Part shown: positions 507 to 28,091 of the stretch, piece by piece
How the letters are laid out: each line of letters opens with the position of its first letter
How positions within the stretch are numbered: position 1 is the first letter of the stretch
NCBI GenBank assembly: GCA_964389375.1
Contig: CAYMDP010000005.1
Location: forward strand, 765-64,764
DNA length: 64,000 nucleotides
From: an uncultured Pseudobdellovibrionaceae bacterium
GTDB taxonomy: Bacteria > Bdellovibrionota > Bdellovibrionia > Bdellovibrionales > UBA1609
Direction: 5' to 3'
Position numbers and translations under genes: made by a program
The notes under the pieces: generated by a model
Told to the model about the DNA's origin: nothing
The model's database searches: none
Seen by the model: the letters and a program-made list of their open reading frames with translations, nothing else

Positions 507-2354
507 TTGGTGATCACATTGAACATAGCTCGCATTCAAATTTTGGCCCTGCTTATGAGCTCTTTGATGTTGCAGAGTTGTGGTCTGCCACGTGACCCAA
601 ACCCCTCGATCTTAGTCATAGCAATTGAAAACTTGGGCTTTCAGTCTGTGGCCTGTGGGACGGAAGTCATGGCCCATCGGGAGATGAGCGGCTTTCGAAT
701 ATTTTGCGAAGAAAGCGTTCGCTTTACCCATGCATTTACTCCGTCTTTAATGACCCAGTCTGCCCTGGCTTCGGTGATGACGGGACTTTACCCCTTCGAG
801 CACGGACTTCGCCATAATGGAAATCAGTTTCTTTCGGCAGAATATAAAACTCTAGCAGAGGTGGCCTTAGAAGAGGGCTACCGAACTGCACTTTTTTCTG
901 GCGGCCCGCCCTTACTTCGCAGCTCGGGTCTAAATCAAGGCTTCGAGGTTTTTGATGAGGGGCCTGGTCCTCGCTTGGGTTTGATCCATCGGCCCAGTCG
1001 ACAGCTTGCGAGATCTTTTGACCGCTGGTTAAGTGCTGAAGTTTCGGGCCGAAGATTTTTTGCGACAATATTCTTTGCAGACTTGCAGTTTCCTAAAGCT
1101 CCCACCCGTTCAGATTTAGGCGAGTTAAGAGAGAGCTCTGTAGAAGCGCAGCTTTTCGAAATCGGCGAGACCTTGGACCAAATGATTCGAAAGCTGAAAG
1201 AACAGAAGCGTTGGGATAACACCTATGTCTTTTTATTTGGAACGAATGGTCGTTTGGATAAAAAAAAGTTGGGTGACCCAGAGGGGGCCGAGAATGTAGG
1301 GCTGCAAAGTTTTAATACTCAGGTTCCCTTGTTTATAAAACCCGCAAGAAAAAGTCGAGATCTCGGGATCGAGTGGAAAATTGACAAGAACGTTTCCCTC
1401 GCGGATGCCGGTGCTACGGTATTTGATATATTGGGGACGGGTGCACCAAAAGGTAAAAACCCAGAGGTCCATACGATTTCTCTAAGACCAGCTTTAATCA
1501 GAGCCGAGTCTCCTTGGCGAAGTGATCGTTTAATCTATTCCGAAACGGCCTGGCCAGATTGGATGGGCTGGGGAGGGATCCGTTTTTCTCTACGAAAAGA
1601 TCAATATCTTTACATTCACGACAGTCAGCCAAAGCTTTTTAATTCTTTGATCGATCGCTTCGAGCAAACTCCCTTTCAGTCGACGGATCCCTTTTATCAA
1701 GACCTCTTTGATTCCTTCCAAAGAAGTGCAAAAAACTTAGGAAAAACTTTTTCCTATAAGCGCAAAGAAATGATTTCGGCTCAATATTCGAAAGCCCTTT
1801 ATTCCCCAGAAGGTCTTGAGGGCTTCGAGGCGCAATTAAGTGTTTATCTTCAAAGAAATCCCAGGGACCGAAGTCTGATGCGAACTCTCGCAGAGCGTGC
1901 GATTCGAAAAGGGGACTGGAAAGAACTCGAAAAGTTAGGACGTCAGGCTCGAATTACCTCTTGGATCTATGTTGCGAAAAAAAATCTTCGCAGTCGCGTT
2001 CGCTGGCGACCCAGGGCCTGTTATAAGCTCATGGTTTCCAGGGCCTCTTCCTTAAGTCTTGAGGATTTAAGCCAGTGTGACGACCGACTTTTGCTTAGGA
2101 TGGTGAACTGGCTTCGCGAGCGAGACGAGACTCAACGAGAATTAATTTTCCAGGCCTTCCTAACGGATTTTTCGGCCCTTCGATTAAGACGCCAGATAGC
2201 AGAAGATAATATTCAGTCCTTCTATTCTTGGCTAAAGCCCGATGAGAATGCTGACACAATTCCCTTGATTGATCTTTATCTGGCCTTGCCTGAAAATGTC
2301 AGAATTCGAAATTTTGTTGAATCTCGACTGTGCTCCGGAGCGGACTCTTGTTAG
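507..2354 (+). CDS. Sulfatase-like hydrolase/transferase (alkaline-phosphatase superfamily) lipoprotein with a helical C-terminal region
   Basis: 615-aa ORF with a TTG start at 507; the true start may be slightly downstream. It has a lipobox (LMLQSCG) and the sulfatase-like segment AFTPSLMTQSALASVMTGLYPFEHGLR. Confidence 0.5.
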   Translation: MVITLNIARIQILALLMSSLMLQSCGLPRDPNPSILVIAIENLGFQSVACGTEVMAHREMSGFRIFCEESVRFTHAFTPSLMTQSALASVMTGLYPFEHGLRHNGNQFLSAEYKTLAEVALEEGYRTALFSGGPPLLRSSGLNQGFEVFDEGPGPRLGLIHRPSRQLARSFDRWLSAEVSGRRFFATIFFADLQFPKAPTRSDLGELRESSVEAQLFEIGETLDQMIRKLKEQKRWDNTYVFLFGTNGRLDKKKLGDPEGAENVGLQSFNTQVPLFIKPARKSRDLGIEWKIDKNVSLADAGATVFDILGTGAPKGKNPEVHTISLRPALIRAESPWRSDRLIYSETAWPDWMGWGGIRFSLRKDQYLYIHDSQPKLFNSLIDRFEQTPFQSTDPFYQDLFDSFQRSAKNLGKTFSYKRKEMISAQYSKALYSPEGLEGFEAQLSVYLQRNPRDRSLMRTLAERAIRKGDWKELEKLGRQARITSWIYVAKKNLRSRVRWRPRACYKLMVSRASSLSLEDLSQCDDRLLLRMVNWLRERDETQRELIFQAFLTDFSALRLRRQIAEDNIQSFYSWLKPDENADTIPLIDLYLALPENVRIRNFVESRLCSGADSC

Positions 2355-2362
2355 GACGCGCC

Positions 2363-3184
2363 CTAAACAGAGACTACAATTTCAGTTTCCACTTTTCGCT
2401 TCAGTAAAGAGGCAATGCGATATAAGTCATCTTCCGAAACGGCTTCGAGCCGAGGATTTGTCGGTGCTTTATTTATAGTCGTAATGTGAACAGATTTAGG
2501 TTGAGTAATGCCAACAGCCTCGATCCATTCATCAAGCATCGTTTGAGTCGTGTTGTCGACTTCGCCGCGCACAAAAAGGGACTGAACATGCCGACTCTTT
2601 AGGCGTGAAAACTCCTCCAGCATCCTAGAGATCGTCGTTCGTATCAGGGGCTGATTGAGGCTGCGAAATAGGTTTTCATTCCCAGCATCCAGTTTTAAAA
2701 AAGTTTTGTCCACTCGGTCTAGCCCGGCAACCACGCGCTTGCTATCCAGATGAGCCCCATTTGTTAAAACCAAGACGGGGAGGCCTGAGCTGATTTCATC
2801 TCTAACGCTAAGGATAACTTTTACGAGTTCATCGAATTGAGGATAAAGTGTGGGCTCTCCGTGACCAGAGATCGTCAAGGCCTGAGGTGGAGTGTCTTTG
2901 GTAATAAGCTCTCGGATCATGGCTCTTAAGGGCTCAACAAAATCTTGTGGTTGAGCAAAGACAATATCCTTTTTAACTTGGTTCATCTTAATAGTTGTTG
3001 GACCAAGGTTACAATAGACACAATCAAAAGAACAAATCTTTGCGTCGCCAAGTGGGTTAATGCCAATGCTTAAGCCGAAGCGCCGACTTGGAATAGGGCC
3101 GTAGACTAGCTCTGTTGGAGCCTCACTTTTTGGAAATGGATGATTCATGTTTATGATTGTCTTCGATGAAAGAAGAGAATTCAA
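2363..3184 (-). CDS. Radical SAM protein
   Basis: CSFDCVYCNLG (CxxxCxxC cluster motif) near the N-terminus, and ISGHGEPTLYP further on. Confidence 0.8.
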   Translation of the reverse strand: MNSLLSSKTIINMNHPFPKSEAPTELVYGPIPSRRFGLSIGINPLGDAKICSFDCVYCNLGPTTIKMNQVKKDIVFAQPQDFVEPLRAMIRELITKDTPPQALTISGHGEPTLYPQFDELVKVILSVRDEISSGLPVLVLTNGAHLDSKRVVAGLDRVDKTFLKLDAGNENLFRSLNQPLIRTTISRMLEEFSRLKSRHVQSLFVRGEVDNTTQTMLDEWIEAVGITQPKSVHITTINKAPTNPRLEAVSEDDLYRIASLLKRKVETEIVVSV

Positions 3185-3232
3185 GGCCTAGCCAGGCGGA
3201 GTCTGTTCGGGGGCTTAGGGTCTAGATGTCAG

Positions 3233-3931
3233 TTAGCCTGCGTTTTGATCCAATTGAAGACTCGCAAGCCAGAAGGGCATATCCACATTGTCCTTCGAAA
3301 GACGGCGTGAAAGCTCTTCGAGTCGGCGCTCATTCTTTGTTGCAGCCAGAAAGTATGGAGTAATAAAAGATCTGCTGGTCAAGATCAGTTGATCTCCGGG
3401 AAGAGGCTTAAATCCATGAACAGAGAAATTTGAAGTTGAGTAAAGTCCCAAAAGTTGAGAGGGAAGGGGCGCAAGGCTAGCCTTTAGGTCAGCGCTATGG
3501 GCGCCCGCGAGGTCCGTTGAAGAGGATAAAGCGGTGAGATAGTTTGGGTGCCGATCTAAAAAAATTTGTGGTTGTCCAATCTGAGCCCAGACACACTCTT
3601 GTCGATTCCAAAACAGAACACAAAGTTCATAGCCAGAGTTATACTCGGAACCATTTTCTTCGCGGTAAATCATGTCATTTGCAAGCATAATTGCGGCTCG
3701 AAGATTATTCGCCATTGGGCTGACACAGGTGAGTTTTTGAAAGGGACTTGTCACTTCTTGGTCTTGAATGACGGACATTAAAAAATCTCGAATAGACTCG
3801 GAGATCTTTTTTGCCCCTTGGCGAGGACCCCAAGGGGTCGTGATGATCAAGAGTCCATTTTCAGGCTCACACAGAATCTCTGGAGTCGGTCGAAAATATT
3901 TTCCACTATAAGAGCGTTCAAGAAACTTCAT
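3233..3931 (-). CDS. PP2C-fold protein lacking the catalytic Asp motifs (putative pseudophosphatase)
   Basis: By-eye alignment to bacterial PP2C (PrpC/PstP type). LLIITTPWGPRQGAKKISESI aligns with xxVADGMGGHxAGxxAS, AQIGQPQIFL with AxxGDSRxYL, GDQLILTSRSF with GDxLLLCSDGL, and KDNVDM with xDNxT. The start lies 2 nt after the upstream stop. Confidence 0.45.
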   Translation of the reverse strand: MKFLERSYSGKYFRPTPEILCEPENGLLIITTPWGPRQGAKKISESIRDFLMSVIQDQEVTSPFQKLTCVSPMANNLRAAIMLANDMIYREENGSEYNSGYELCVLFWNRQECVWAQIGQPQIFLDRHPNYLTALSSSTDLAGAHSADLKASLAPLPSQLLGLYSTSNFSVHGFKPLPGDQLILTSRSFITPYFLAATKNERRLEELSRRLSKDNVDMPFWLASLQLDQNAG

Positions 3932-3933
3932 CG

Positions 3934-5895
3934 CTAAAGTCCAATGCCGTGACTTCTTAGTTTACTTCGGGCCTTTAAGAAATATTCCCCACCCTTGATG
4001 TCGGCTTCCATAATTTTTTTCCATTTTTCTTTGGCTTGATCTACGTTTCCAAGACTTTCCTCAAGAATGCTGTCTTCGTAAACGAGTTTGAGCTCTCGTT
4101 TTAACTCGGACAAGGCAAGATCTTGGTTCGATTTGGCTTCTTGATGGCTTGGGTCCTCTTCCGATGCCTTCTTACAGGCCAGGTAGGCGGACTTAAATTG
4201 AGCACTTTCTAAATTCTGTTGGCAAGTCGCCAATAACTCTGAAACCTTTTTGGTAAGCTCGCTTTGAATCGATGCAAGTTCTCTACGGGCTGTGCTTTCC
4301 AGATCAGAAAGTCCAGAATAAGAACCGCGCAAGAATTTTTGATATTCTTTAATCGATTTCGAAAGTTCTCCTTGTCCATAGAGGGATTTTGCCAAACTGT
4401 ACTGCCTGCGTCCTGCCTGAGCGAGCTGTCTTTGTTCATTCGCAATTTCTCTTTTTCGAGCCTTTTCAAGTTCTCGCTCTTGCAGCTCTCCAATTAGACC
4501 TAGGATCCCCTCGTTGCCTGGGTCTCTTTCGCGTGCAGCAGAAAGACAGGATTCGATGTCTTCAAGACTTGTCGTCGGCGTCAGTTCTGCCCGACATCGA
4601 ACAACTTCCTCTGCTATAAATTCTTTTGTTTTTTCGGCTTCTTGTCGCTCGCGCTCGTTGGCTTGTGCTTTGGCTAAAAGTTTAGATCCGTTTTCGCAAA
4701 AATCTTGAAGCTCTTTCGAATTTTGAAACTGCGGCGTTAAATCATGAAGTTTTTTAAGTTCGGCTAAACATAATTCGTATTTTCCTTGGCGGTATAAAGA
4801 TCCCGCGAGGTTTAAAGCATCCTTAATCGCGGATTGTTGTCCGGGAGTCAGATTTTCGACTAGAGGACTTCCCTCTTCAGAGGAATTCAATGTGGCCTGA
4901 TCGCTGGACTGCTGCGGGTCCCGAAGAATTCCCCAGATTAAAATGGGAATCATCAACGCAATGGCCCCACGGGTGGCCATTTTTTTGTTCATGAACTTTT
5001 GAAAGCGTCCACCGAAATAATTTTGCGCGGGAATTCGAACGACACCAGGACCAGAGTCTGCGGAGAAAGCTTCGAAGTTTGAAAAGTTCGCGACTTGTCC
5101 AGGCGCCTGGGCCGGCTGAGGGTAGACGGGCGACAGGGCTGCAGACATTTGCGCAAACTGTGGATTGCGAGATTCAAAATGCATCCGCACGGACTTAATT
5201 GAGAGCTGGTCGCCACTGACAATCTGAATGGGACTTTGGGGCTCGAGGGCCTCGCCATTTAATGAGAGTCCATTTGCGCTACCGAGATCTTTAATAAAAA
5301 AGCCGTCTTGGGTGCGAATGATTTCGAAATGTTTGCGGCTGACATGCTGACAATTGATATAGATATCACAACCTGGATCTCTTCCCCCAAGCCAGCGCTG
5401 ACCCTCAAGTTTAAAGACTTCAGCCTGCCCAGTCTCTTCGATCTGAATTTTCAGATAGGATTCAAGTCGGACCTGGCCAATCATTGTGCGTTCATCTTGA
5501 TCTGTGGGGCTCTGATTTACCTGTGCTTGATCCCGTGATACGGGCGCTGTGACGACCAAGCTTTTTTCAGAGAAATCAATTGGAGCTTCCAGCTCTTCAG
5601 ATACAGCCATGACACATTCAAAAACAAAGGGAGGAATCGAAAATACGGATCCATTTTTAAGCTCGATACTGTCATGAGCTGCGGAATCAACAAAAAGCCG
5701 ACCATGTTTTGAAGTGACACTGACTCTCCAGACTGCATTTTCTTCAACAACCTTTGCATGCTGTCTAGAGATCCCACGTGGTCCTTCGACCACAATATCA
5801 CACTCGGGCGCGCGTCCGATCACGTACTCGCGGCCTGATTCTAATTTAAGCCGACTGACTTCGATCCCGTTATGTTTGACGATAAGTTCTAACAT
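3934..5895 (-). CDS. Membrane protein with two FHA domains and a C-terminal TPR/coiled-coil region
   Basis: FHA1 is IGRAPECDIVVEGPRGISRQHAKV. FHA2 is LGGRDPGCDIYINCQHVSRKHFEI...GSANGLSLNG. The TM helix is GAIALMIPILIWGIL, followed by TPR-like repeats. I prefer the ATG at 5895, which overlaps the upstream TGA as TGATG, over the TTG at 5925 used in the ORF track. Confidence 0.8.
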   Translation of the reverse strand: MLELIVKHNGIEVSRLKLESGREYVIGRAPECDIVVEGPRGISRQHAKVVEENAVWRVSVTSKHGRLFVDSAAHDSIELKNGSVFSIPPFVFECVMAVSEELEAPIDFSEKSLVVTAPVSRDQAQVNQSPTDQDERTMIGQVRLESYLKIQIEETGQAEVFKLEGQRWLGGRDPGCDIYINCQHVSRKHFEIIRTQDGFFIKDLGSANGLSLNGEALEPQSPIQIVSGDQLSIKSVRMHFESRNPQFAQMSAALSPVYPQPAQAPGQVANFSNFEAFSADSGPGVVRIPAQNYFGGRFQKFMNKKMATRGAIALMIPILIWGILRDPQQSSDQATLNSSEEGSPLVENLTPGQQSAIKDALNLAGSLYRQGKYELCLAELKKLHDLTPQFQNSKELQDFCENGSKLLAKAQANERERQEAEKTKEFIAEEVVRCRAELTPTTSLEDIESCLSAARERDPGNEGILGLIGELQERELEKARKREIANEQRQLAQAGRRQYSLAKSLYGQGELSKSIKEYQKFLRGSYSGLSDLESTARRELASIQSELTKKVSELLATCQQNLESAQFKSAYLACKKASEEDPSHQEAKSNQDLALSELKRELKLVYEDSILEESLGNVDQAKEKWKKIMEADIKGGEYFLKARSKLRSHGIGL

Positions 5896-6875
5896 CAGAA
5901 TCTCTCCTGAAGTCGGATACGACAATCATCATGGTTTCGTTTGGCCTCTTGATAGACTGTGCTACTTGTATCTTTCACTAAAATCATGACATCTCGAAAT
6001 GCGGCGATACAAGAGCTGAATTGATTTTGATCTTTGTAGGATCGTCCCAGAAGCATTTGTTTTTGGATCAACTCGGAGTTTCTTCTTTGAGAAAGTCTAA
6101 GGTAGCGATTGCATAAGGAGTGGCTGGGGTCGAGCGATAGACAGGCTTGAAAACTTTCACTCGCTCGCCCAAACTGACCTTTTTTATAGTCCCGAAATCC
6201 TCGGATATAAACAGACTGAGCTTCCCGCTCGGCAGGTGACTTGGGTCGTCTGGCATCGAATTCGGTTCGAGCCTCTTCAATGGATTGATTCACTTCTTCC
6301 ATTGCAGCGGTGACCTGCTCTTCGGTTCTAAGTTGGACCTCTTCCTTTTTGTCCGATGGTGAAGAAAGCAAAAGATAAAGCATGAATCCGATTCCGGCAT
6401 AAATGGCAAAACGAGGAATTGGGGACTTTGAGCCCTTTGGACGTCGAGTCTTTCGTGGACTTCCGGCCTTGGGTAAAGGGGACTGGACCGCCTCATAAGA
6501 AGCCATGGTTTGAGGTCCCATCGGGACTTGAACCAACTCTTGAGGAAGATGGGATTGAGCCCGAAACTGAAGTTGAGTATCACCAATCGAGATTAAACTA
6601 TTGTCATGTAGAATTGCAGTTTCACAATGAACCCCGTCGACCAGCAAACGATTTTTTTCGCTTTTGCCGGAGATGGTGAATACACCCTCTTTGTATTGGA
6701 TGATGGCATGTTGACGACTGCATTTAGGATCATAGGGTATCGCGATGTCGTTTTCGGGGTCTCGTCCAATAGAGATTTTTGGGCTTACCAATTTAAAGCT
6801 GACGCCTTGCTCGGGACCATTCAGCAGACGAAGGTGAAATTCAAGACCTGCCACAGGAGCGATGGCATTTTTCAT
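5895..6875 (-). CDS. FHA-domain membrane protein with a TPR-like C-terminus
   Basis: IGRDPENDIAIPYDPKCSRQHAII (FHA), a Pro/Lys-rich linker, the TM helix FAIYAGIGFMLYLLL, and a TPR-like tail. There is an ATGA overlap with the upstream gene. Confidence 0.8.
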   Translation of the reverse strand: MKNAIAPVAGLEFHLRLLNGPEQGVSFKLVSPKISIGRDPENDIAIPYDPKCSRQHAIIQYKEGVFTISGKSEKNRLLVDGVHCETAILHDNSLISIGDTQLQFRAQSHLPQELVQVPMGPQTMASYEAVQSPLPKAGSPRKTRRPKGSKSPIPRFAIYAGIGFMLYLLLSSPSDKKEEVQLRTEEQVTAAMEEVNQSIEEARTEFDARRPKSPAEREAQSVYIRGFRDYKKGQFGRASESFQACLSLDPSHSLCNRYLRLSQRRNSELIQKQMLLGRSYKDQNQFSSCIAAFRDVMILVKDTSSTVYQEAKRNHDDCRIRLQERF

Positions 6876-8452
6876 ACACCACCTCCGTGTTCAAGAGGAG
6901 CAAGGACCACAATAAAGTAAGAAATTCGATTCGAGCCGGAGACCGCCTGAATTGCGATCTGAAAATTTTGGCCAGAGAACTCGAGTTCATTCGTAAGTAT
7001 CTGGTCAGGACTTTGTTTTGATCTTTGGATCAAATCAACAAGACTTAGTTTTAGGGATTGATCAGAAACACTTTCGACGTGCAGATTAATGATATTCTCG
7101 GACCGGATCCCAGTTCGTTCTTCAAAAGCAGAATTAACCGCATAAATCGAAAGGTCCTCGGCATGAATGGCAATCGCCCCATAACCGATGAGTTCAATTA
7201 AATTACTCATTTCAAATCGACGGTCGGATTCAACAATCGGAGCGGCGCCGCTGTTTTCTGGCTGGACCCGGGCAAGAGCACTTCCAATGTTTGAAACAAG
7301 TTTTTCTAAAGCGGGAAATTGAAAGGGAACGTGCACATTGTCTCGACCCTCTTTAAGAGCCGCATCGACTTGCTCATTTAAAGAAAGAATTGGATATTCG
7401 ATGAGTTTATAAAGAAAGAAAAATAGGATCGTACCGAGGATCAGGGCGATCAGCAGAGTCTTAATAAAAAGACTTAAGATCTTTTCGTTACCGACGGAGA
7501 GGGAGGTCATGTCATACTCCACGACAGCAAAAGCCGTGGCAGACTGAACACCGGTTTCTGAGTTGAAAAACTCAATTGGGACAACCGCAACAATAGTTTG
7601 GCTGTCGACCTTTTGTACGGCCTCTCGTGAAGCTCCCGTTCGCTTGCGGGCTTCATGTGCGAAGGGAATATTTGGATAGGATCCAGCCTGTGCGGCGGGA
7701 GCCATGATGCTCCCATCCCCTTCAGAGATAATCAGTGCTTTTTTTACTCCGTTGAGATTGCTAGCGGATTGAACCGATAGTGCGGATTCAATCCCTTGCA
7801 TGACGGCACTGCGATTCACGACGGCTAGATTTCTGGCAATCGTCAGTGCGTGTTGCTCGCTTTCGACCTCGACACTTTCCTGAAGAATCTGAATCAGTGG
7901 GATTGTGGATAAACTTGTTAATAGAATCCCAAAGGTTCCAAGAAACAGAACCAAGACCCACTTAAACTCCATGAGTTCTGCAAGTTTGTAAACTCCGGGC
8001 AGCAAAGCTTTGTTGAGATAATTTTCAATAAACCGCTTCCAGTTTTGGACGGGCTCTTGTTCACTCTCGGGAGCAGAGTCTTGATTTGGATGTGATGAAG
8101 CCTGAAAGGGATCGGATTTATAAGCCACATTCCCATGATAGCTGGGAGCGACGGCCATGCTTCTGTTAAAGGGAATGATTTCAAACAAAATGTCATGAAC
8201 GCCAATGCGATCTCCCGGCTGTATGCGGGTCGATCGGACTTGAACTCCGTTGACGAATGATCCATTGCGCGAGTTCATGTCAGTCAAAATTATTTTATCC
8301 GAATAGATCTCGATCTGAAGGTGCTCTTTTGAAGCCCCGGGACTTAGGATTTTAACATCACAGTCCAAGGCCCGACCTAGGGTATTGGTCCCATCTTTAA
8401 GTGGAAAAGCTTGGCCCGTTTGGGGGCCAGATAAAAATCTAATGCCCCACAT
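6872..8452 (-). CDS. FHA-domain protein with two TM helices, an extracytoplasmic loop, a HAMP-like linker and a PAS-like C-terminus (no output domain)
   Basis: N-terminal FHA (LGRALDCDVKILSPGASKEHLQI...NSRNGSFVNG). TM1 is WVLVLFLGTFGILLTSL and TM2 is LLIALILGTILFFFLY. A PAS-like segment (AIHAEDLSIYAVNSAFEERTGIRSENI) follows. Confidence 0.7.
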   Translation of the reverse strand: MWGIRFLSGPQTGQAFPLKDGTNTLGRALDCDVKILSPGASKEHLQIEIYSDKIILTDMNSRNGSFVNGVQVRSTRIQPGDRIGVHDILFEIIPFNRSMAVAPSYHGNVAYKSDPFQASSHPNQDSAPESEQEPVQNWKRFIENYLNKALLPGVYKLAELMEFKWVLVLFLGTFGILLTSLSTIPLIQILQESVEVESEQHALTIARNLAVVNRSAVMQGIESALSVQSASNLNGVKKALIISEGDGSIMAPAAQAGSYPNIPFAHEARKRTGASREAVQKVDSQTIVAVVPIEFFNSETGVQSATAFAVVEYDMTSLSVGNEKILSLFIKTLLIALILGTILFFFLYKLIEYPILSLNEQVDAALKEGRDNVHVPFQFPALEKLVSNIGSALARVQPENSGAAPIVESDRRFEMSNLIELIGYGAIAIHAEDLSIYAVNSAFEERTGIRSENIINLHVESVSDQSLKLSLVDLIQRSKQSPDQILTNELEFSGQNFQIAIQAVSGSNRISYFIVVLAPLEHGGGV

Positions 8453-8786
8453 GAAGTTGATCTCCGGGTTCTACAAAGTTTTCAGGGATCGCCCCTGTTG
8501 AAAATTCAAAAACAGATTTGGCTTTCCAAATGGGACCGCGGATTCTCCAGGGCCGAACATTGCGATGAACGGCGCAGACCTTAAGGTCTCGGTCGACAAA
8601 AATTAGATCCAAAGAGAACTTCATAAAAAATGTATGAATGCTGTTGCAATCCGAAATCCAAAGTGTGGTCTGTTGGGGCAAAGTTTTTCGACCCAACAAT
8701 CCTTTTGCGCGGCTCCAAAAACTGTTCGCAGTGATGACCTCTGCGGCCAGTGTTTTTTGTTTGCTTGTGTTTTTTAAAGAGGGCAT
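8439..8786 (-). CDS. DUF192-family protein
   Basis: 115 aa. KGLLGRKTLPQQTTLWISDCNSIHTFFMKFSLDLIFVDRDLKV matches the DUF192 (COG1430) pattern. There is a TAATG overlap with the upstream gene. Confidence 0.65.
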   Translation of the reverse strand: MPSLKNTSKQKTLAAEVITANSFWSRAKGLLGRKTLPQQTTLWISDCNSIHTFFMKFSLDLIFVDRDLKVCAVHRNVRPWRIRGPIWKAKSVFEFSTGAIPENFVEPGDQLHVGH

Positions 8787-9697
8787 TAAACATCCCCTCC
8801 GTAAAAGAACTGAAGTATCACTGGTGCGAAGACCATAATAAAAACGGCTGGAAGGATTAAGAAAAACATGGGCAGCATCATCAACTGTGAAGCTTTTGCG
8901 CCCGCTTTTTCTGCGCGAACAAAGCGCTCAAGCCTCATTTGCTCGGATTGATCTTTGAGGACTTTCGAAATGCTTGCTCCGGTTTCATCCGCGTCGCGGA
9001 CGACCGCGACAAAAGAGGTGATCTCGGACATATCAAGACGGTCGGCCAGCGCGGCAAGGGCATCTTTGCGCGATCGGCCAAGTTTGATGTCTTTCAGGAC
9101 AATTGCAAATTCGTCAGCCAGAACACTGTTTTCAGCTTTTTCTGTGATCCGTTGAAGGGCTCCGATAAAATCAAGACCTGCTTCTGTAGATAGGGCCATC
9201 AGGTCAATAAAGAAGGGAAGGTCCACCACCACCGAATTGTAGCGAGAGGATTTTTGTTGCTGGCAGTACAGGTGGGGAAAATAAAAGCCAAATAGCCCAA
9301 ATAAAAAACAAAACAAATAGGGATATCCCAGCTGAAGGGCAAAATTCAAAATCAACAAGGCGATAGGAAACATCACGCCCCAAAGAATTTGCAAACCGAT
9401 AAACTCGTCCACGTTGATTTCTTGAGAAAGACCTGCGGTCAAAATTTTCTTTTGTACATTTTCACGATAGTCATGATTGCGGATCCGCAGAGCATGCTGA
9501 AGAGTGAAGTTGTGCACCAGGGGTCTTGAAAAGTTGATTAAGCCGGATTTCGACTTCTGTGGTTCGTCTCCAGAAGCCCAGGCCAAGGCATCGGCGTCAG
9601 CATTATTTGAAAAGATGGCAGTGACAAACAGGTAAACACTCAAGGCGGCAAAGCCAAGCCCAGCTAAAAGCAAAATGATTAAATCAAAACTTAACAT
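8786..9697 (-). CDS. Type II secretion system F-domain protein (TadC/TadB-like pilus platform protein)
   Basis: N-terminal TM helix, central TM pair, then LPFFIDLMALSTEAGLDFIGALQRI...ETGASISKVLKDQSEQMR and a terminal TM helix. This is the T2SSF domain architecture of Tad platform proteins. Confidence 0.75.
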   Translation of the reverse strand: MLSFDLIILLLAGLGFAALSVYLFVTAIFSNNADADALAWASGDEPQKSKSGLINFSRPLVHNFTLQHALRIRNHDYRENVQKKILTAGLSQEINVDEFIGLQILWGVMFPIALLILNFALQLGYPYLFCFLFGLFGFYFPHLYCQQQKSSRYNSVVVDLPFFIDLMALSTEAGLDFIGALQRITEKAENSVLADEFAIVLKDIKLGRSRKDALAALADRLDMSEITSFVAVVRDADETGASISKVLKDQSEQMRLERFVRAEKAGAKASQLMMLPMFFLILPAVFIMVFAPVILQFFYGGDV

Positions 9698-9725
9698 CTT
9701 CGCCCTTTTCGTGCAGTAAAGGGGG

Positions 9726-10340
9726 ATGTACCAGTTGATCTTGGCCTCTCAATCTCCACGGCGTCGCGAGCTTCTCGAGAAAGCGGGTTATCAATTTGGT
9801 ACTTACCCAGTTAAACTATCGGAAATAATTGATAAAAACCTGAATCTGGAAGAGGCCTTAAAGAAGCTCAGTCGGGATAAGGTGTTGGCCTGCCTGGATC
9901 AGAATAAGCAATTGAAATCTAAGGGCTTTTTGGTATTAGGGGCGGATACAGAGGTGGCTCTAGAGGGGGAGTTTCTTGGAAAACCCAAAAATCTGGACCA
10001 AGCGAGAGAGTTTTTGAATAGGCTGTCAGATAAATCGCATAGCGTCATGACAGCCATTGCACTTTTGGACGTTGGCGCTAACCGCTGGGTCCAGGACCTC
10101 GTCCGGACAGAGGTCCAGTTTAAAAAGCTCAGCGCTGCTGAAATTGAAAGGTATGTTCAAAGTGGGGAACCGATGGACAAGGCCGGGGGCTATGCTATTC
10201 AAGGTCTGGGAAAAAACCTGGTCGAGGGTTTCAAGGGCTCGTGGACCAATGTTGTTGGCCTACCCATGGAGCGGTTCGAAGAACTGATGAGTGAAAATGA
10301 CTGGAAACGACATTGCAAGCCGGCTCAGCAAAATTCGTAG
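9726..10340 (+). CDS. maf: Maf-family nucleoside-triphosphate pyrophosphatase
   Basis: LILASQSPRRRELL at the N-terminus and AGGYAIQG near the C-terminus. Confidence 0.85.
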   Translation: MYQLILASQSPRRRELLEKAGYQFGTYPVKLSEIIDKNLNLEEALKKLSRDKVLACLDQNKQLKSKGFLVLGADTEVALEGEFLGKPKNLDQAREFLNRLSDKSHSVMTAIALLDVGANRWVQDLVRTEVQFKKLSAAEIERYVQSGEPMDKAGGYAIQGLGKNLVEGFKGSWTNVVGLPMERFEELMSENDWKRHCKPAQQNS

Positions 10341-11001
10341 GCGCATTGAATCCGCAGCTTTGCGGACCAACAGGGATCCGCACGAAATTCAATTGATCGC
10401 AGTTTCAAAAGGTCAGCCTGCAGAAAAAATTCGCAAGGCTTTTGACCTAGGTCTTCGCCACTTCGGAGAAAATTATGTTCAAGAGGCTACTGCGAAGCAG
10501 ATTGAACTTCGGGATCTAAATATTCAGTGGCATTTTATCGGTGGCCTGCAAAGTAATAAAGCAAAGCAAGTCGTCGGAGCTTTTGAGTGGATTCACTCGG
10601 TGGACCGTGCCTCCTTGTTGGAGCGACTGAATGGAATTGCTCAAACTCAAAATACGAAACAAAAAATTCTGATTGAAGTTCTGCTTGCCGATGAAAGCTC
10701 AAAGTCCGGGGCAAAGCTTGATGAGGCCGAGAGTTTAATTCGGAATCTTCACAAGATGGATCACCTCATTCCCTGCGGACTGATGGTGATGCCTCCGGCC
10801 CTAAAAAATCCCGAAGAGGTCAGGCCTTATTTTAATCAGGCAAAGTCGCTTCTTAGTCAGTGGAGATCCCTTTTGCCAATGAGTCTGCAAGAGGGATTTA
10901 AGGAGCTTTCAATGGGCACAAGTCATGATTTTGAAATTGCAATTGAAGAAGGATCTAGCTTCGTTCGCATAGGGACGGCATTAATGGGAGAGAGGGTTTA
11001 G
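10297..11001 (+). CDS. yggS: YggS-family pyridoxal-phosphate homeostasis protein
   Basis: IQLIAVSKGQP, HFGENYVQEA, WHFIGGLQSNK. I prefer the ATG at 10297; the ORF track starts at the GTG at 10291. Confidence 0.85.
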   Translation: MTGNDIASRLSKIRRRIESAALRTNRDPHEIQLIAVSKGQPAEKIRKAFDLGLRHFGENYVQEATAKQIELRDLNIQWHFIGGLQSNKAKQVVGAFEWIHSVDRASLLERLNGIAQTQNTKQKILIEVLLADESSKSGAKLDEAESLIRNLHKMDHLIPCGLMVMPPALKNPEEVRPYFNQAKSLLSQWRSLLPMSLQEGFKELSMGTSHDFEIAIEEGSSFVRIGTALMGERV

Positions 11002-12146: not shown

Positions 12147-12719
12147 ATGAAGATCGCTCCAATAGATATCGCTCATAAGACATTCGGCCGGAAAATGATG
12201 GGACTGGATCCCGATGAAGTGACGGATTTTTTACGCGCCATTGCTGACGAGATGGAAAGTTTAGTGCGCGAGCGTAACAATCTTCGTGAAGCAATCCGAG
12301 ACCGCGACTTAACTTTGGCTGAATACAAAGAGCGTGATGAGTTACTAAAAAGCACAATCACTACAGCGACTAAGATGGCCGATAAACTTCAGCATGATGC
12401 GGATCGTGAAGCCCGCTTGATCTTGAACGATGCAAATCAAAAGGCCGATCTGATTGTCCGTGATGCTCGTGATAGTTTGAAAAAGATCTATCAAGAAATT
12501 ACTGATTTAAAGCGTCTTCGTATGCAGTTCGAAAACAATATGAAAGCGCTGGTTCAGTCTCATTTGACGATGTTAGAACAAGGTCAAAAGTATATGCCAA
12601 ACCCTTTGCTAGAGCCTCGAATCAACGCAGAGATGCAGGATAACAATTCCGAAGAGCAAATGATTAAGGCCCGCATGAGTGAGGCAGTTTCAAGAGCCAC
12701 TCGAGACAGCGAGTTCTAA
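12147..12719 (+). CDS. divIVA: DivIVA-domain cell-division/polarity protein
   Basis: MKIAPIDIAHKTFGRKMMGLDPDEVTDFL is the canonical DivIVA N-terminus, followed by coiled coil. Confidence 0.85.
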   Translation: MKIAPIDIAHKTFGRKMMGLDPDEVTDFLRAIADEMESLVRERNNLREAIRDRDLTLAEYKERDELLKSTITTATKMADKLQHDADREARLILNDANQKADLIVRDARDSLKKIYQEITDLKRLRMQFENNMKALVQSHLTMLEQGQKYMPNPLLEPRINAEMQDNNSEEQMIKARMSEAVSRATRDSEF

Positions 12720-13313: not shown

Positions 13314-14816
13314 TTAGTTCGCTCCGCCTTTTTGTGTTGGCGCCGAGTCAGAGGGGAGAACCCTTGCTGATCCGTGGTTTAAGTCACAAAGCAGCTTTGC
13401 TAGGGGGTAAGTGTGTTGGATCGCCAAAAGGCTACGGCCAACGGCACAGCGCTGTTGCTGCGGAAGCGCTGAGGCCTGAAGGTCGGACTCGATCAGCTCT
13501 TTCATATTTCTGCAGCTGCTTAAGTAGGATCGGATCAAAGTTGCATTATCGATGGAAGAAGATCCTTCGATCTGGCTGTTCCACTGGGAAGTTAAAACTT
13601 CGGGTCGCCCGATCTCGAGACGATCATTTAGTTTAAAGGTCATTCTATTTTCAGGTTTGTTGCTACCGCGAATAAACTCGGATTCAACCGATAGATTTTT
13701 GCCTTCCTCTTTTATCCAATATTGAACCTTTTTATCGCCAACTTTAGCCTGTACTTCTCCGCTGCTACAGTTGGGAAGATCAAGTAAGTCGACCTCTGCC
13801 AAAAATCTTTTTTCTGCGGCCTCTTTGCTTTTCTGCAAAGTCGTGCAAAGAGCCGGGGAGGCAGGAGTCTTGCTGTCGATGGACTTATTTAAGATTGATA
13901 GAAGTTGCTCAGGGTCGAATTGAAGAGAGTCACAAGATCCGGATACGCCCGCGCCAAAACTCAAGTCATCTTTTAGAATTTCTAGATCCGCGGGGCTCAG
14001 TTGTGGGAAGCACTTTGCAAGCTTGTCCGAATTCAATTTTGAGGCCGCCGCTTGTCCTGCAGCCATTGCTCCAACCGCAAGAGCTCCGACTTTTGCGCCC
14101 TTCACGATTCGATTTTTTTGCGCTTTTTGTTTTAGTGTTTGTTCAATTTTTTTAACATCAGTTTGTCTTAGGCCCTCGCGAGATTCCCAAAGTGCGATGG
14201 CTCGATTAGATTCGCGAATCTGAGCCTCTAGAGCTTGAAGCTGTATTCTCTTCTTTGGTCCGTCCTTAATTTTACTTTTTTCCTGTTCAAGGCTGGTTTT
14301 GTGGGCCTCAAGCATCAAACGATGTTTTACCGTAAGCTCCACGGCGCTACGATATTGGGTCCATTCCCAGACTTGTGCGGCCGCCGGGGATTTTGCAAGA
14401 GTCGTCTTATTTTGAGTTTTGAAGCCAGCAATTTTATCCTGAAGAGTCGGGAGTTTTAATTTTTTTGAAAAAGGCCCTGAGCGCCGAACTTCGGCTATGT
14501 AGCTGCGAAACTCGGCAGCATGGGTTTTTAAAACGGCTTCGATACCTTTCACAAACTGTTGAGCGGCCGGGTCACTGGCCAAAGCTTTTGCAAAGCCAGG
14601 TCTATTTCCAAGACCAATCGATCCGATCCGCGATTTTTGGCTAGAGTAGGTTATTCCCAAAGCTCCAAGGGCACAGGCCGCTGCATTGGCGCCTTGAAAG
14701 CAATCGGCCTGGCTGATCAAATCGACGATTTCGTCACCGAGATCGCAATTTTGAGTCTCGGCTAAGGCGGGGCTTGCGAAAAAAAGAAGGGCAAGAAGTG
14801 AGAGAAGTTGCTTCAT
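13314..14816 (-). CDS. Secreted hypothetical protein
   Basis: Long ORF with signal peptide MKQLLSLLALLFFASPALA (ATG at 14816). No recognisable domain. Confidence 0.6.
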   Translation of the reverse strand: MKQLLSLLALLFFASPALAETQNCDLGDEIVDLISQADCFQGANAAACALGALGITYSSQKSRIGSIGLGNRPGFAKALASDPAAQQFVKGIEAVLKTHAAEFRSYIAEVRRSGPFSKKLKLPTLQDKIAGFKTQNKTTLAKSPAAAQVWEWTQYRSAVELTVKHRLMLEAHKTSLEQEKSKIKDGPKKRIQLQALEAQIRESNRAIALWESREGLRQTDVKKIEQTLKQKAQKNRIVKGAKVGALAVGAMAAGQAAASKLNSDKLAKCFPQLSPADLEILKDDLSFGAGVSGSCDSLQFDPEQLLSILNKSIDSKTPASPALCTTLQKSKEAAEKRFLAEVDLLDLPNCSSGEVQAKVGDKKVQYWIKEEGKNLSVESEFIRGSNKPENRMTFKLNDRLEIGRPEVLTSQWNSQIEGSSSIDNATLIRSYLSSCRNMKELIESDLQASALPQQQRCAVGRSLLAIQHTYPLAKLLCDLNHGSARVLPSDSAPTQKGGAN

Positions 14817-14913
14817 AAAAATCCTATCCAGAAAATGAGATAAAGAGCCAACCACTATTGTAGCTAAATATTCTCATCTCGTTCAGAAGAATTTGAGAGG
14901 TAGACCTTATAGT

Positions 14914-16053
14914 CTAGAAGTTTTCCAAAGCCTTCTGAGTATCGTCGAGCATCTTGTCCACATTCGGTGGTGGAGCCGCCTTGGGCTTTGGTTTAGCTTT
15001 CGGCCGTGGTCGGGCCTTTCGCCCGGTGCGCTTCTTTTGCGGAAGCGGATTGGATTGCTCAAAAAGTTCTTCATCATATTTTTGTTCAGCCGGCTGAAAT
15101 TGATCCCCTCTTCGTTCGCGAAATCTTGAAGGAGGAATATCGTCTTGAAAGCCAGAGGGTGACAACTCTTGAGGGGAAGAGCCGAAATACCAGGGAAGTT
15201 TTAAATTTACAAAGACACTTAAGCCGTGGGCTGTATTCTCTCCGTCTAAAGTTTGCTCTATCCCAAGGCGCAGATCGAAAGCCTGTCCTTTCCATCCAGT
15301 CCAAGCTCGCGCTGCCATCCAAGTTGGGTTTACTGAATAGTAACGAAGACTGCTGCCATTCACACGAGTTGTGACTGTCGTGCGAGGGCCAATATTCGCA
15401 GAATCTTTATCATCCGAAATTTTTTGTGCCCCATTGACCTCGGCTCCTCCGATCCAGCTGCTGTCGATGGCTTGAAGCCCTAAGCGCCACGGCAGAAGGC
15501 TGGCCCGGTCTTCATCTTGATAGCGATATCCGACAAATGCATAAGCCTGAAGAGCCCAAATATTGACTGTGCTCCAAAGGCCCGGCTGAAGAACCATCAC
15601 ACCTTCTCCGGTCAGACTGGCATCTGTCGCAGGATCAATTTTATTCAATGGAAATAAAAAGATAAACTCAGTAAATAAGCTAAAGTCTGAGTCGATCAAA
15701 GTGTATCTGGCCCCAGCGCCCAATTCGGTGATTTCGGAATTGCTGCGATCAAATTGAGAGTCAAAGCTTTGCGAATATCCAAATCCGACAGAGGTCATCA
15801 GCTCCCAGCTGCGGCTTGGGTGAAAAGACATAGACACATCGCCTCGTAAAACGCGGTAGTATCGTCCGCCACCAAGCTCTTGGTAGCTTCCTCCGCCGGC
15901 CAAATAGTTGGATTCGGTCATAAAATAATCCAGGCCAGTCTCGAAGATGACAGCCTGGTTTTTTGGAGAGGGAGCCCACTGCGTCGAGGAGAAGTCTGAT
16001 CCTTGGACCCAAGGGCTAATTAGGGCTAAACATGTAAAAGCAAGTTTTCGCAT
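14914..16053 (-). CDS. Putative outer-membrane beta-barrel protein with a basic Lys/Pro-rich C-terminal tail
   Basis: Signal peptide MRKLAFTCLALISPWVQG, then alternating hydrophobic beta-strand patterns ending in LKLPWYF. About 90 hydrophilic residues follow, including KKRTGRKARPRPKAKPKPKAAPPP. The start is uncertain (16053 or 16083). Confidence 0.5.
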   Translation of the reverse strand: MRKLAFTCLALISPWVQGSDFSSTQWAPSPKNQAVIFETGLDYFMTESNYLAGGGSYQELGGGRYYRVLRGDVSMSFHPSRSWELMTSVGFGYSQSFDSQFDRSNSEITELGAGARYTLIDSDFSLFTEFIFLFPLNKIDPATDASLTGEGVMVLQPGLWSTVNIWALQAYAFVGYRYQDEDRASLLPWRLGLQAIDSSWIGGAEVNGAQKISDDKDSANIGPRTTVTTRVNGSSLRYYSVNPTWMAARAWTGWKGQAFDLRLGIEQTLDGENTAHGLSVFVNLKLPWYFGSSPQELSPSGFQDDIPPSRFRERRGDQFQPAEQKYDEELFEQSNPLPQKKRTGRKARPRPKAKPKPKAAPPPNVDKMLDDTQKALENF

Positions 16054-16107
16054 ACCCCAATAGTGTAACGGATAGATCTTCAAGAGAGAAGTTTTGGTGA
16101 TAAAAAT

Positions 16108-24061: not shown

Positions 24062-26252
24062 GCGACATAGAAAAGGCTCAAAGGGCTCAAAAGGCTTCAA
24101 GAAATCGAAAGATAACTTTCACAGCAAAAAACCACAAAAAATTCTTCAGGGGATCGTCAAGCGCCACCCGGATGGCTTCGGATTCTTTATTGCAGACGAT
24201 GCAGATCAGGTCGACGTCTATATCCCGCGAAATTTTATGAGCGGGGTTATGGCGAATGATCGTGTAGAGATCTCGATGGAAAGAGAAAGCGGTGGGGATC
24301 GATTCCGCGGAGAGATTCTAGAGATTCTTCAGCGCGCGACAAATCAGGCGGCGGGCCAATACACCGCCTTGCCCGATGGTAAAGGAATTCTTAAAGACAA
24401 AAGCTTCGCCTGGGGAAGTGACCTGATCGTAGAGAACCCAGAAAATATTCCGGTAAAAGATAAAGACTGGGTTGCGGTTCGGTTGACCGATTATCCGGAT
24501 TCAGCGCGGGGTTTTCGAGGAGTCCTTGTTAAGGTCATCGGAGACATATTAGATCCCTTAAATGACTCTCCTAGGGTTCTTCATCTTCATCGAATTCCAG
24601 ATGAATTTAGCAAAAAAACAATTCAAGAGGCCGCCCGTTTCGGTGAAGAGGTTGATCCTCGTGACATCGAAGGACGAGTCGATTTGCGCGAGATGCCCTT
24701 GATCACTATTGATGGGCAAACGGCAAAAGATTTTGACGATGCTATTTTAGTGCAGAATCAACCAACTGGATTTCGCTTGATCGTAGCGATTGCGGACGTC
24801 AGTCATTACGTCAAGTTGAACACGGCCATTGATGAAGATGCTTACGAGCGGGGAACGAGCACTTATTTTCCAAACTTCGTCTCTCCCATGCTTCCAAAAA
24901 ACTTAAGTGATCATTTGTGTTCACTAAAGCCCAATGTGGATCGTCTATGTCTAGTGGCGGACATGACCTTTGATTTTCAGGGAGAAAAAACGAGTTCTAA
25001 GTTTTACGAAGCCGTGATGCGCAGTCACGCCCGAGTCACTTATGGGCAAGCCCAAGAAGTGATTGATGGCAGTGTGCCCGAAAGTCTTCGGCACGTGGCG
25101 GACTGTATTTTGCGGGCCTCAGACTTAGCCAAGATATTGATGGCCAAAAGATTTCGCGAAGGATCTTTAAATTTAGAGATTCCGCAGACAGAAATTGAAG
25201 TGGATGAAACGGGACAGCCAGTAGATATCATGCAGGCCGAAAGAATTTTTTCTCATCGTTTGATTGAAGAGATGATGTTGGCCGCCAACGTGGCCGTTGC
25301 CGAATTTTTAAATCAAAATGAGCGCGCGGTTTTATTTCGGATTCACGAAGAGCCAAATCCTGAAGCCATTATGAATTTGGTCAACTACCTTCACACTTTA
25401 GGCTTTCAAAAAACGATTTCTGGAGGAGACCTTCAGAAAAAAATTACCAAAGCGCTTCAGGAATTTTCGGGCCATCCTCATGAGCATATTTTGAATGTGC
25501 TGACCTTAAGATCGATGGCTCAGGCGAAATATTCTCCTCATAATGTGGGGCATTTTGGTTTGGGTTTTGCGAATTATGCTCACTTCACAAGTCCTATTCG
25601 AAGATACCCGGATTTAATTGTTCACCGAGTTTTAAAGTCAGTGATTTGCCCCGGCAAGGGTTACGGGGCTTACAGCATGGACGAGCTTGAGTCTGCTGGA
25701 ACTGTCTTAAGTGCTGCTGAGCAAAGGTCGGTCAAAGCAGAGCGTCATATCCAGGCCATTAAAAAAGCCCGCTTTATGAGTAAACATCTGGGACAGGTTT
25801 TTGAGGGCTTCATCAGCTCGGTTACAAAATTTGGACTTTTTGTATTGCTTAGACAATTCGACGTCGATGGCCTTATTCGTCTTGAGGACCTCGGTGGAGA
25901 TCGCTTTGAATTTGATCCCGAAAAACTTATCCTGGTTGGCCGAAAATCTGGTATGAAATACGTCATCGGAGACCCTCTTATGATTCAAGTGGCTGCAGCC
26001 CATATTGATGAAGGACGGGTGGATTTCGTATTGGCTCCGGTTGAGGGTGCAAAGCCAAAATCAGTTCGGGATAGATTTTTAGAAGAATCTTCTTCTGGGC
26101 CAACGGAAAAACTAGGTTTTAGATCGAAGAAAAGGGAGAACGGTAAGGGTGGCAAACGGGCGCGTCAGCAAACTGAAAAACGCGGGAAGGCTGAAGACAA
26201 TTCTGGGCATCTTCGCTCGTCACGGTTTTCAAAGCCTACTCGAAAGAGCTAA
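24060..26252 (+). CDS. rnr: Ribonuclease R
   Basis: OB/cold-shock-like N-terminus, RNB region (ITIDGQTAKDFDDAI, HFGLGFANYAHFTSPIRRYPD), an S1 domain, and a Lys/Arg-rich tail. Confidence 0.9.
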   Translation: MRHRKGSKGSKGFKKSKDNFHSKKPQKILQGIVKRHPDGFGFFIADDADQVDVYIPRNFMSGVMANDRVEISMERESGGDRFRGEILEILQRATNQAAGQYTALPDGKGILKDKSFAWGSDLIVENPENIPVKDKDWVAVRLTDYPDSARGFRGVLVKVIGDILDPLNDSPRVLHLHRIPDEFSKKTIQEAARFGEEVDPRDIEGRVDLREMPLITIDGQTAKDFDDAILVQNQPTGFRLIVAIADVSHYVKLNTAIDEDAYERGTSTYFPNFVSPMLPKNLSDHLCSLKPNVDRLCLVADMTFDFQGEKTSSKFYEAVMRSHARVTYGQAQEVIDGSVPESLRHVADCILRASDLAKILMAKRFREGSLNLEIPQTEIEVDETGQPVDIMQAERIFSHRLIEEMMLAANVAVAEFLNQNERAVLFRIHEEPNPEAIMNLVNYLHTLGFQKTISGGDLQKKITKALQEFSGHPHEHILNVLTLRSMAQAKYSPHNVGHFGLGFANYAHFTSPIRRYPDLIVHRVLKSVICPGKGYGAYSMDELESAGTVLSAAEQRSVKAERHIQAIKKARFMSKHLGQVFEGFISSVTKFGLFVLLRQFDVDGLIRLEDLGGDRFEFDPEKLILVGRKSGMKYVIGDPLMIQVAAAHIDEGRVDFVLAPVEGAKPKSVRDRFLEESSSGPTEKLGFRSKKRENGKGGKRARQQTEKRGKAEDNSGHLRSSRFSKPTRKS

Positions 26253-27789: not shown

Positions 27790-27803
27790 CCTAAATAGCC
27801 CCA

Positions 27804-27948
27804 CTTTTTAAAGAAATTTATTCGATCCGAGAAGTGCTCCGCCTCAGCCGTCGAACATTCTCGCTTCTCCTTCGGCTTTGCCGAAGGAGAAGCTGCGAAA
27901 CTAGTCTTCGGCGGACACTTCTCGGATCGAATAAATTTATTTAAAAAG
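27804..27948. repeat. Palindromic intergenic element, copy B (forward)
   Basis: Arms ctttttaaaGaaatttattcgatccgagaagtg and its complement, with one mismatch. Core is aagtgctccgcctcagccgtcgaacattctcg, a 12-bp apical hairpin, then ctgcgaaactagtcttcggcggacactt. Confidence 0.9.
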
Positions 27949-28091
27949 ATACATGGGCAGACAAATTTTTTTGATTCAAAGAAGCGGCGCTTCTTCGTAG
28001 CGAAGAAACGTCGCGGCAAGATATTTTCTGTTTGAGAGTCGTCAGTCTCGAAACTCTGGATCCACTAAGGACCTATGTTAGACTTTACGGG

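Follow-up and report, generated by a model that had tools for sequence, protein, structure and literature searches.

The 64,000-nucleotide (nt) stretch of DNA analysed here (the window), from an uncultured Pseudobdellovibrionaceae bacterium (contig CAYMDP010000005.1), contains a compact block of six minus-strand open reading frames (ORFs), 9697–3233, which encode a TadC-type platform protein, a DUF192 protein, three membrane proteins carrying FHA domains and a protein of PP2C fold. Quite probably, we are dealing with a Bdellovibrio-type predator and its tadC operon, orthologous to Bd0470–Bd0475 of Bdellovibrio bacteriovorus, in which the FHA proteins would have a phospho-reading role around the platform. 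It is a real block, in an uncultured relative, but not a new kind of system. The points that made it look novel in a preliminary description of the window do not stand, one of them because the block corresponds to a tad/kil locus described before, Bd0470–Bd0475, an outcome which that description had itself named as refuting. What retains interest is how the FHA proteins, DUF192 and the pseudophosphatase may work, together with the transition from an active to a dead PP2C.

Correspondence with Bd0470–Bd0475

Like the block in the window (Table 1), Bd0470–Bd0475 consist of six genes, in the same order and with the same domains. In the published lists, Bd0470 is TadC, Bd0471 is an "uncharacterized conserved protein" with a Phyre match to a "hypothetical signal peptide protein", Bd0472, Bd0473 and Bd0474 are FHA proteins, and Bd0475 is hypothetical with Phyre matches to "serine phosphatase, bacterial stressosome" and "stage 2 sporulation phosphatase" (Duncan 2019, PMC6561027). 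Our fold assignments agree with those of Phyre, both for the DUF192 protein (PDB 3pjy) and for the sixth protein (RsbX, stressosome phosphatase and SpoIIE), and sizes are close when the window is compared with Bdellovibrio (326 vs 386 residues for the second FHA protein, 653 vs 674 for the third and 232 vs 228 for the PP2C-like protein). The neighbourhood is similar too, with DivIVA encoded a few genes upstream in both (Bd0464 in strain HD100, 12147–12719 in the window, where it lies four genes past maf), as it is in two relatives, L044 and L045. There are differences. The DUF192 protein in the window has no signal peptide whereas Bd0471 was noted as having one, a radical SAM gene follows the block in the window, and the source of the window is a Bdellovibrionales lineage not in culture, whose nearest relatives are labelled Pseudobdellovibrionaceae.

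The Bdellovibrio genes have been treated as one operon, Bd0474 being described as an FHA-FHA protein with an extracytoplasmic TPR domain. Bacterial two-hybrid data confirm that Bd0474 binds Bd0075, a GYF-TPR protein, the contact being periplasmic, and AlphaFold-Multimer predicts a contact between Bd0473 and Bd0475 (interface predicted template modelling score, ipTM, 0.604) (Abulude 2025, PMC12034629). All six genes matter for predation, with transposon sequencing fitness values on planktonic V. cholerae of 0.033, 0.015, 0.0021, 0.0025, 0.0036 and 0.023 for Bd0470 to Bd0475, respectively (PMC6561027). The Bd0470 and Bd0474 mutants, which were complemented in trans, behave differently: the TadC mutant does not attach, whereas the Bd0474 mutant attaches without killing or rounding prey (Duncan 2019, PMC6561027). 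The main text of a RomR proximity paper makes no mention of Tad or of the tadC-operon genes.

The Tad machine of HD100 is complete but dispersed, tadC being encoded apart from the main tadZA-tadB-rcpA-flp locus; tadC could not be deleted, TadC-mCherry is found at the invasive pole where it co-localises with the secretin RcpA, and Tad depletion blocks invasion (bioRxiv 10.64898/2026.07.08.737194). The window shows the same split, since a Pfam scan of the 53 ORFs that are at least 130 residues long and do not lie within a larger one detected no T2SSE (the Tad/T2SS ATPase family), secretin or Flp pilin in the 64 kb, and no Pkinase (Hanks kinase) domain either, as the preliminary description had noted for kinase, ATPase and secretin. 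That description was mistaken in calling TadC an orphan, because the HD100 TadC, in spite of its separate gene location, acts at the invasive pole together with the products of the main tad locus. Taken to its end, the orphan reading would mean a new envelope machine complete in itself, with a single T2SSF protein as its base and without a Tad ATPase, secretin or pilin anywhere in the genome. Such a machine would account for the lack of any partner gene within 64 kb, but we find it hardly credible because HD100 has the same split with a complete tad locus elsewhere, its TadC shares the invasive pole with RcpA, and the Myxococcus protein KilH and Bd0470 are reciprocal orthologues.

Table 1. Genes of the block and its immediate surroundings, with their counterparts in known systems
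Feature	Positions	Strand	Description
TadC	8786..9697	-	T2SSF-family inner-membrane platform protein, 303 residues; counterpart of Bd0470 and KilH
DUF192 protein	8439..8786	-	DUF192/COG1430, 115 residues, without signal peptide; counterpart of Bd0471
FHA_A	6872..8452	-	526 residues; cytoplasmic FHA, transmembrane segment, periplasmic domain of ~145 residues, transmembrane segment, WalK-like HAMP/PAS-like tail; counterpart of Bd0472
FHA_B	5895..6875	-	326 residues; FHA, short hydrophobic segment, TPR; counterpart of Bd0473
FHA_C	3934..5895	-	653 residues from ATG 5895; FHA-FHA, one transmembrane segment, periplasmic TPR-rich domain; counterpart of Bd0474
Pseudophosphatase	3233..3931	-	Predicted PP2C fold, 232 residues; counterpart of Bd0475
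Radical SAM gene	2363..3184	-	Pfam Radical_SAM, E 3e-9; downstream of the block, frequent neighbour
Divergent gap	9698..9725	.	28 nt between the start codons of tadC and maf; read in the sequence

Gene junctions

The coordinates of the six genes, their junctions and the 48-nt spacing to the radical SAM gene, all given in the preliminary description, were confirmed in the ORF list and by reading the sequence, the radical SAM gene starting with TTG. Consecutive genes meet at TAATG (TadC/DUF192), at a 14-nt overlap, ATGTGGGGCATTAG (DUF192/FHA_A), at ATGA (FHA_A/FHA_B), at TGATG (FHA_B/FHA_C) and at TAG-CG-ATG, which leaves a 2-nt gap (FHA_C/232-residue protein). The TGATG junction indicates that FHA_C starts at ATG 5895 and not with the longer ORF that opens at a TTG (5925). 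Tight junctions recur in distant relatives, the DUF192/FHA_A overlap measuring 13–14 nt in loci L001, L044 and L046, and are therefore not due to chance.

Owing to the short distance between the start codons of tadC and maf, each promoter must lie within the coding region of the other gene, which places that of the operon inside maf. No consensus sigma-70 site was detected in 9698–9725, and a promoter/terminator scan of 2000–10500 returned sites no more numerous than in shuffled sequence, which is uninformative on transcript boundaries. At the other end, most close relatives have the radical SAM gene, but it is missing from L006, L007, L009, L044, L045 and L046; because of these absences we reject it as part of the unit, and it can be disregarded in studies of the operon.

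TadC and DUF192 proteins

TadC has the make-up of a platform protein, being a polytopic inner-membrane protein of ~300 residues with one T2SSF (GspF) domain. The domain (PF00482) is found at residues 163–290 (E 8e-19, 68 bits vs a cut-off of 25.2), hydropathy reveals 3–4 hydrophobic segments, and homologues at 70–80% identity, all from metagenome-assembled genomes (MAGs) of Bdellovibrionales, are in many cases named TadC or tight adherence protein C. Pfam likewise recognises the DUF192 protein (E 5e-18), whose orthologue profile matches PDB 3m7a (E 7e-8) and 3pjy (E 2e-5), the latter having the molecule name 'Hypothetical signal peptide protein', identical to the Phyre match recorded for Bd0471. 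Direct sequence searches of the PDB, with TadC or with the single DUF192 protein, gave no informative match. The DUF192 gene directly follows tadC in every complete locus, and this conserved coupling is a modestly new point, since it ties DUF192 to tadC as tightly as any known Tad subunit; we found no link between DUF192/COG1430 and pili in the literature.

FHA membrane proteins

The T2SS-F/TadC-like protein, the DUF192 protein and the four FHA domains on three proteins (one, one and two, respectively) that had been read from the sequence are all borne out by Pfam. FHA_A matches FHA with an E value of 3e-15 and Yop-YscD_cpl with an E value of 8e-15, and has transmembrane segments at residues 160–184 and 333–355 according to hydropathy. 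Its proposed organisation, FHA followed by two transmembrane segments and a HAMP-PAS tail, holds for the first three elements, while the HAMP-PAS assignment is weakly supported, by an NCBIfam WalK match (residues 279–481, E 7.6e-6) and by PAS and Cache matches in 4–5 and 2 of 28 orthologues, respectively. No kinase domain was found in this tail, and a single-sequence AlphaFold model of FHA_A (predicted local distance difference test score, pLDDT, 45.7) was too poor to be used. FHA_B was expected to consist of FHA, transmembrane and TPR parts, of which the first and last are recognised by Pfam (FHA E 5e-14, TPR_2 E 9e-6) but not the middle one, a hydrophobic stretch of 17 residues only that falls below the hydropathy threshold. 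FHA_C has two FHA stretches (E 1.6e-29) and one transmembrane segment (residues 306–324 by hydropathy). The pattern reported for the Bd0474 interface, N382-x-Y-M-Q-x-x-Y389, is found again in the corresponding TPR of two orthologues, L005 and L037, which is weak, TPR-generic support.

In each of the four FHA domains, the Arg and Ser that contact the phosphate do not vary among 28–36 orthologues, which is a modestly new point. In FHA_A, residues G26, R27, S41, K42, H44, S61 and N63 are invariant across 28 orthologues, as are G37, R38, S53 and R54 across 32 orthologues of FHA_B, and R28/S43/H46 and R172/S186/N208 of FHA_C are kept in 35–36 of 36. The Gly-Arg/Ser-x-x-His/Asn signature of phosphothreonine-binding FHA domains is complete in FHA_A and in the second FHA domain of FHA_C, with exceptions in the first FHA domain of FHA_C, which has lost the Asn, and in FHA_B, which is variable at the His and Asn. 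Judging from this conservation, the phosphate-binding residues are under purifying selection.

This conservation weighs on a different view of the tadC operon, in which the FHA domains form a phosphorylation-independent inner-membrane ring around the platform, similar to SctD/PrgH, with no kinase input and with the dead PP2C playing a structural part only. That all four FHA regions also match Pfam Yop-YscD_cpl, that MXAN_4649 encoded beside kilH is PrgH-like, that there is no Hanks kinase within 64 kb, that the PP2C is catalytically dead by its motifs and that the first FHA domain of FHA_C lacks the canonical Asn are all in keeping with such a ring. However, FHA domains that no longer bound phosphopeptides would not be expected to keep the phosphate-contacting Arg and Ser invariant in every case, the intact PP2C that a distant lineage has in its operon (see below) implies a real phosphothreonine substrate at least ancestrally, and there are annotated Ser/Thr kinases essential for predation elsewhere in B. 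bacteriovorus. We regard this ring as rather unlikely.

A PP2C fold without its catalytic aspartates

The last protein of the block, which has no Pfam or NCBIfam match, is predicted to be a PP2C-fold pseudophosphatase devoid of the catalytic, metal-binding aspartates, as proposed in the preliminary description. Its AlphaFold model, built from an alignment of 25 homologues, has a pLDDT of 90.4, and the top Foldseek matches are the PP2C phosphatases tPphA (E 7e-13, TM-score 0.66–0.70), PppA of the type VI secretion system (T6SS) and PstP, the range over the three being E 7e-13 to 1e-10 and TM-score 0.6–0.7, with RsbX, a stressosome phosphatase and SpoIIE lower in the list. The protein has the PPM fold but not its metal-binding aspartates. 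The PP2C motifs (N)ED, DGxGG, VGD and (S/T)DG are replaced by RPTPE, TPWG, GQP and SRS, and in an alignment of the family profile to the tPphA sequence (E 9e-4), D119 and D193 of tPphA fall on Q/P and R. The replacement is itself conserved: the position of the DGxGG motif is an invariant TPWG in the family, its residues T32, P33, W34 and G35 being invariant or nearly so. The pseudophosphatase call is modestly new, Phyre having earlier marked Bd0475 as phosphatase-like. The family is sizeable, with 453 representatives at 50% clustering in a full HMMER search, and a profile of 87 divergent members matched 19 proteins, none of them from a cultured strain.

Residues 57–64 of this protein form a D-x-E-x-T-S-P-F loop in an exposed, unstructured stretch of the model (block mean pLDDT ~83–85), in which T61 is invariant in close relatives and nearly invariant in the 87 divergent family members. 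The loop is also present in an active PP2C relative (P0360, described below). That it might be an FHA docking site is speculation, against which the same loop in an active relative would weigh.

Conservation in relatives

Species-representative genomes scanned with the sixth protein and a narrow peptide pattern yielded 40 loci, all from Bdellovibrionales or Pseudobdellovibrionaceae MAGs. In every sufficiently long locus the order is maf (on the opposite strand), TadC, DUF192, FHA_A, FHA_B, FHA_C and the PP2C-like gene. The synteny asked for in the preliminary description does hold, with all six genes in order in 29 of 45 loci (the remainder are mostly truncated contigs) and the block kept down to 32% identity in TadC. 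At intermediate distance, L044 and L045 have a TadC that is 57–59% identical, and keep both the block and the same DivIVA-proC-yggS-maf flank.

The most distant locus, L046 (a Logan SRR25425419 contig with 38% G+C and unrelated flanks), is also the one with the 32% identical TadC. Its block reads T2SSF, DUF192, FHA, FHA, FHA-FHA-TPR and then a 245-residue protein (P0360), which passes the Pfam SpoIIE and PP2C_2 cut-offs and keeps NED, DGFGG, TDG and MDN, the first three motifs (NED/DGxGG/TDG) aligning to RPTPE/TPWG/SRS of the window protein. Since the last gene of L046 appears to encode an intact PP2C, the window version would be a degenerate descendant. This intact PP2C in the same operon slot also counts in favour of a phosphothreonine link. 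In L046:10001-12027, the apparently intact PP2C in the pseudophosphatase slot is followed by a 407-residue response-regulator protein.

At the other extreme, L043 has only the PP2C-like gene and nothing else of the block in its vicinity; there (L043:10001-11810), an ExbB/ExbD pair directly adjoins it. Such a pair (MotA_ExbB and ExbD) is also found just past a sulfatase gene in several relatives (L001:19332-20374, L044:12631-13665, L045:12549-13627), a position that the window, beginning close to its sulfatase gene, does not cover.

These comparisons speak to the possibility that the FHA and PP2C-like genes are a general Ser/Thr signalling module for the envelope or division that happens to share the tadC transcript without acting on the Tad machine. 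The block does lie beside maf, yggS, proC and DivIVA, the strongest FHA matches are mycobacterial FhaB/FipA and GarA, and Bd0474 and TadC mutants fall in different phenotype classes. In L046, however, tadC, DUF192 and FHA genes stay coupled even though the division-type neighbours are absent, the overlaps of start and stop codons are kept, FHA genes flank kilH in Myxococcus too and the defect of the mutants is specific to predation, all of which makes a general module very unlikely.

A working model for the tadC operon

If the block is the tadC operon, TadC would be one half of the TadB/TadC inner-membrane platform of a type IV pilus machine of the predatory Tad (Kil-like) sort, for which TadB, the secretin, the pilins and the ATPase would be encoded elsewhere in the genome. 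Five accessory proteins would be co-translated with it: the cytoplasmic DUF192 protein, the three FHA membrane proteins and the PP2C-fold protein. With four FHA domains on the cytoplasmic face and a periplasmic side that may be sensor-like (FHA_A) or made of TPR (FHA_B and FHA_C), the FHA proteins could form a scaffold and checkpoint around the platform, or gate it. The FHA domains would read phosphothreonine written by a Hanks kinase acting in trans, FHA_A might relay a periplasmic prey-contact signal inward, and the dead PP2C may be a non-catalytic adaptor on FHA_B and not an eraser. The missing kinase would most simply be supplied in trans. Bd3148 and Bd1804, two predation-essential genes annotated as Ser/Thr kinases, lie elsewhere in the HD100/109J genome (PMC6561027). 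The guess of the preliminary description, an FHA scaffold or regulator of a Tad/Kil-like envelope machine, coincides with what has been proposed in the Bdellovibrio and Myxococcus literature.

Several points weigh against this reading: (i) no phosphorylated Tad component is known from Bdellovibrio, (ii) loss of an FHA protein is not simply equivalent to loss of TadC, since the Bd0474 mutant attaches and the TadC mutant does not (PMC6561027), (iii) polar effects of the transposon insertions are possible for the four genes that were not complemented, (iv) the presence of TadB, TadA, secretin and kinase in this organism is assumed from HD100 and (v) the presumed orthology to Bd0470–Bd0475 rests on concordant gene order, domains, sizes, fold matches and neighbourhood, not on a reciprocal best hit.

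A bolder version of the model is possible, but we hold it to be doubtful. The block would be an ancient, portable, phosphothreonine-gated Tad-platform module, in which an ancestral active PP2C eraser (as in L046) became a dead adaptor in Bdellovibrionales, with the T61 loop as a docking or phospho-acceptor site for the block's own FHA domains, DUF192 as an unrecognised Tad platform subunit and FHA_A as a histidine-kinase-like sensor of prey contact in which FHA replaces the kinase output.

Predatory bacteria use Tad/Kil machines to invade or kill on contact, and how prey contact switches them on is a question in the field, for which the FHA proteins have been called "promising candidates". The comparative data sharpen the points that can be tested in the model organism: FHA residues are kept, and the phosphatase looks dead in most lineages and intact in one deep branch.

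Other features of the window

Besides the block, the Pfam scan revealed a histidine kinase/NtrC pair in the window. The sole other kinase-like fold is a UbiB/ABC1 atypical kinase-like protein, the gene of which is followed shortly downstream by a low-molecular-weight phosphotyrosine phosphatase gene (26149–28565, plus strand). The UbiB/ABC1 protein (26149–27789) is unrelated to the FHA block, and we rejected it as the missing kinase, since it belongs to a family of the ubiquinone pathway (TIGR01982, E 1e-125).

A fifth FHA protein (60520–63066), not mentioned in the preliminary description, has 848 residues with the FHA domain at its N-terminus, a long coiled coil and a transmembrane segment late in the sequence; it ends a three-gene run on the plus strand (58051–63066) and is attached to a stator-like pair. 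The first gene of this run encodes a MotB/ZorB-like protein of 499 residues, which contains a long coiled coil and whose C-terminus is weakly OmpA-like, and the second a MotA/ZorA-like protein of 311 residues (ZorA_2 E 8e-14, below cut-off).

The remaining features are all on the minus strand: (i) two flagellin genes (307 and 281 residues) in the same orientation, ~360 nt apart (32685–34812), (ii) a gene pair with Planctomycete-type PSCyt3/PSD2-5 domains (DUF1585/1587/1588/1592/1595) and DUF1552 (28559–32385), which is unusual-looking for a Bdellovibrionales contig and (iii) ORFs of 513, 389, 426 and 349 residues without a Pfam match (13314–16083 and 47817–50226), the first two, which were compared with NCBIfam as well, having no match there either.

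Comparison with other known systems

Among gliding machineries, the Bd0474 (FHA)/Bd0075 (GYF) pair is one that we take to resemble the bitopic GltG (FHA)/GltJ (GYF) pair of Myxococcus. NCBIfam GltG matches to FHA_A and FHA_C are weak (21–25 bits vs a cut-off of 650), and no TonB-C domain was detected in this comparison.

The threonine-phosphorylation pathway of the T6SS (PpkA, PppA, Fha1) likewise associates an envelope nanomachine with genes for an FHA reader and a protein of PP2C fold, and its PppA is among the closest structural matches of the 232-residue protein. In the T6SS pathway, a Hanks kinase and an active PP2C accompany the FHA protein, whereas there is no Pkinase in the window (hence none adjacent to the block) and the PP2C, which lacks the catalytic aspartates, is inactive by motif. 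Moreover, the FHA proteins in the window are membrane-anchored with periplasmic domains, and the machine is another one.

SctD (YscD/PrgH) of the type III secretion system similarly combines a cytoplasmic FHA-type domain, a single transmembrane segment and a periplasmic domain. It differs in that the periplasmic parts in the window are TPR or sensor-like and not ring-building, the search for SctD ring-building domains after the transmembrane segments of the window FHA proteins having returned only TPR or weak Cache/PAS signals, and in that the window FHA domains keep phosphate-binding residues.

A parallel outside Bdellovibrio is the Kil system of Myxococcus xanthus. It differs in that kilH sits with kilG (TadB), kilB and pilin genes, among which no DUF192 or PP2C-like gene is listed, and in that the Kil ATPase carries its own FHA domain. 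The likeness lies in Kil cluster 2 (MXAN_4648-4651), where TadC-type kilH is directly beside FHA genes, just as tadC is in the window, in a system with a predatory, contact-dependent role in which FHA domains are over-represented. KilH is the orthologue of Bd0470, and its gene is preceded by MXAN_4649 (FHA, PrgH-like) and MXAN_4648 (FHA and TPR) (Seef 2021, PMC8460266), in agreement with the preliminary description, according to which FHA proteins accompany the Kil apparatus.

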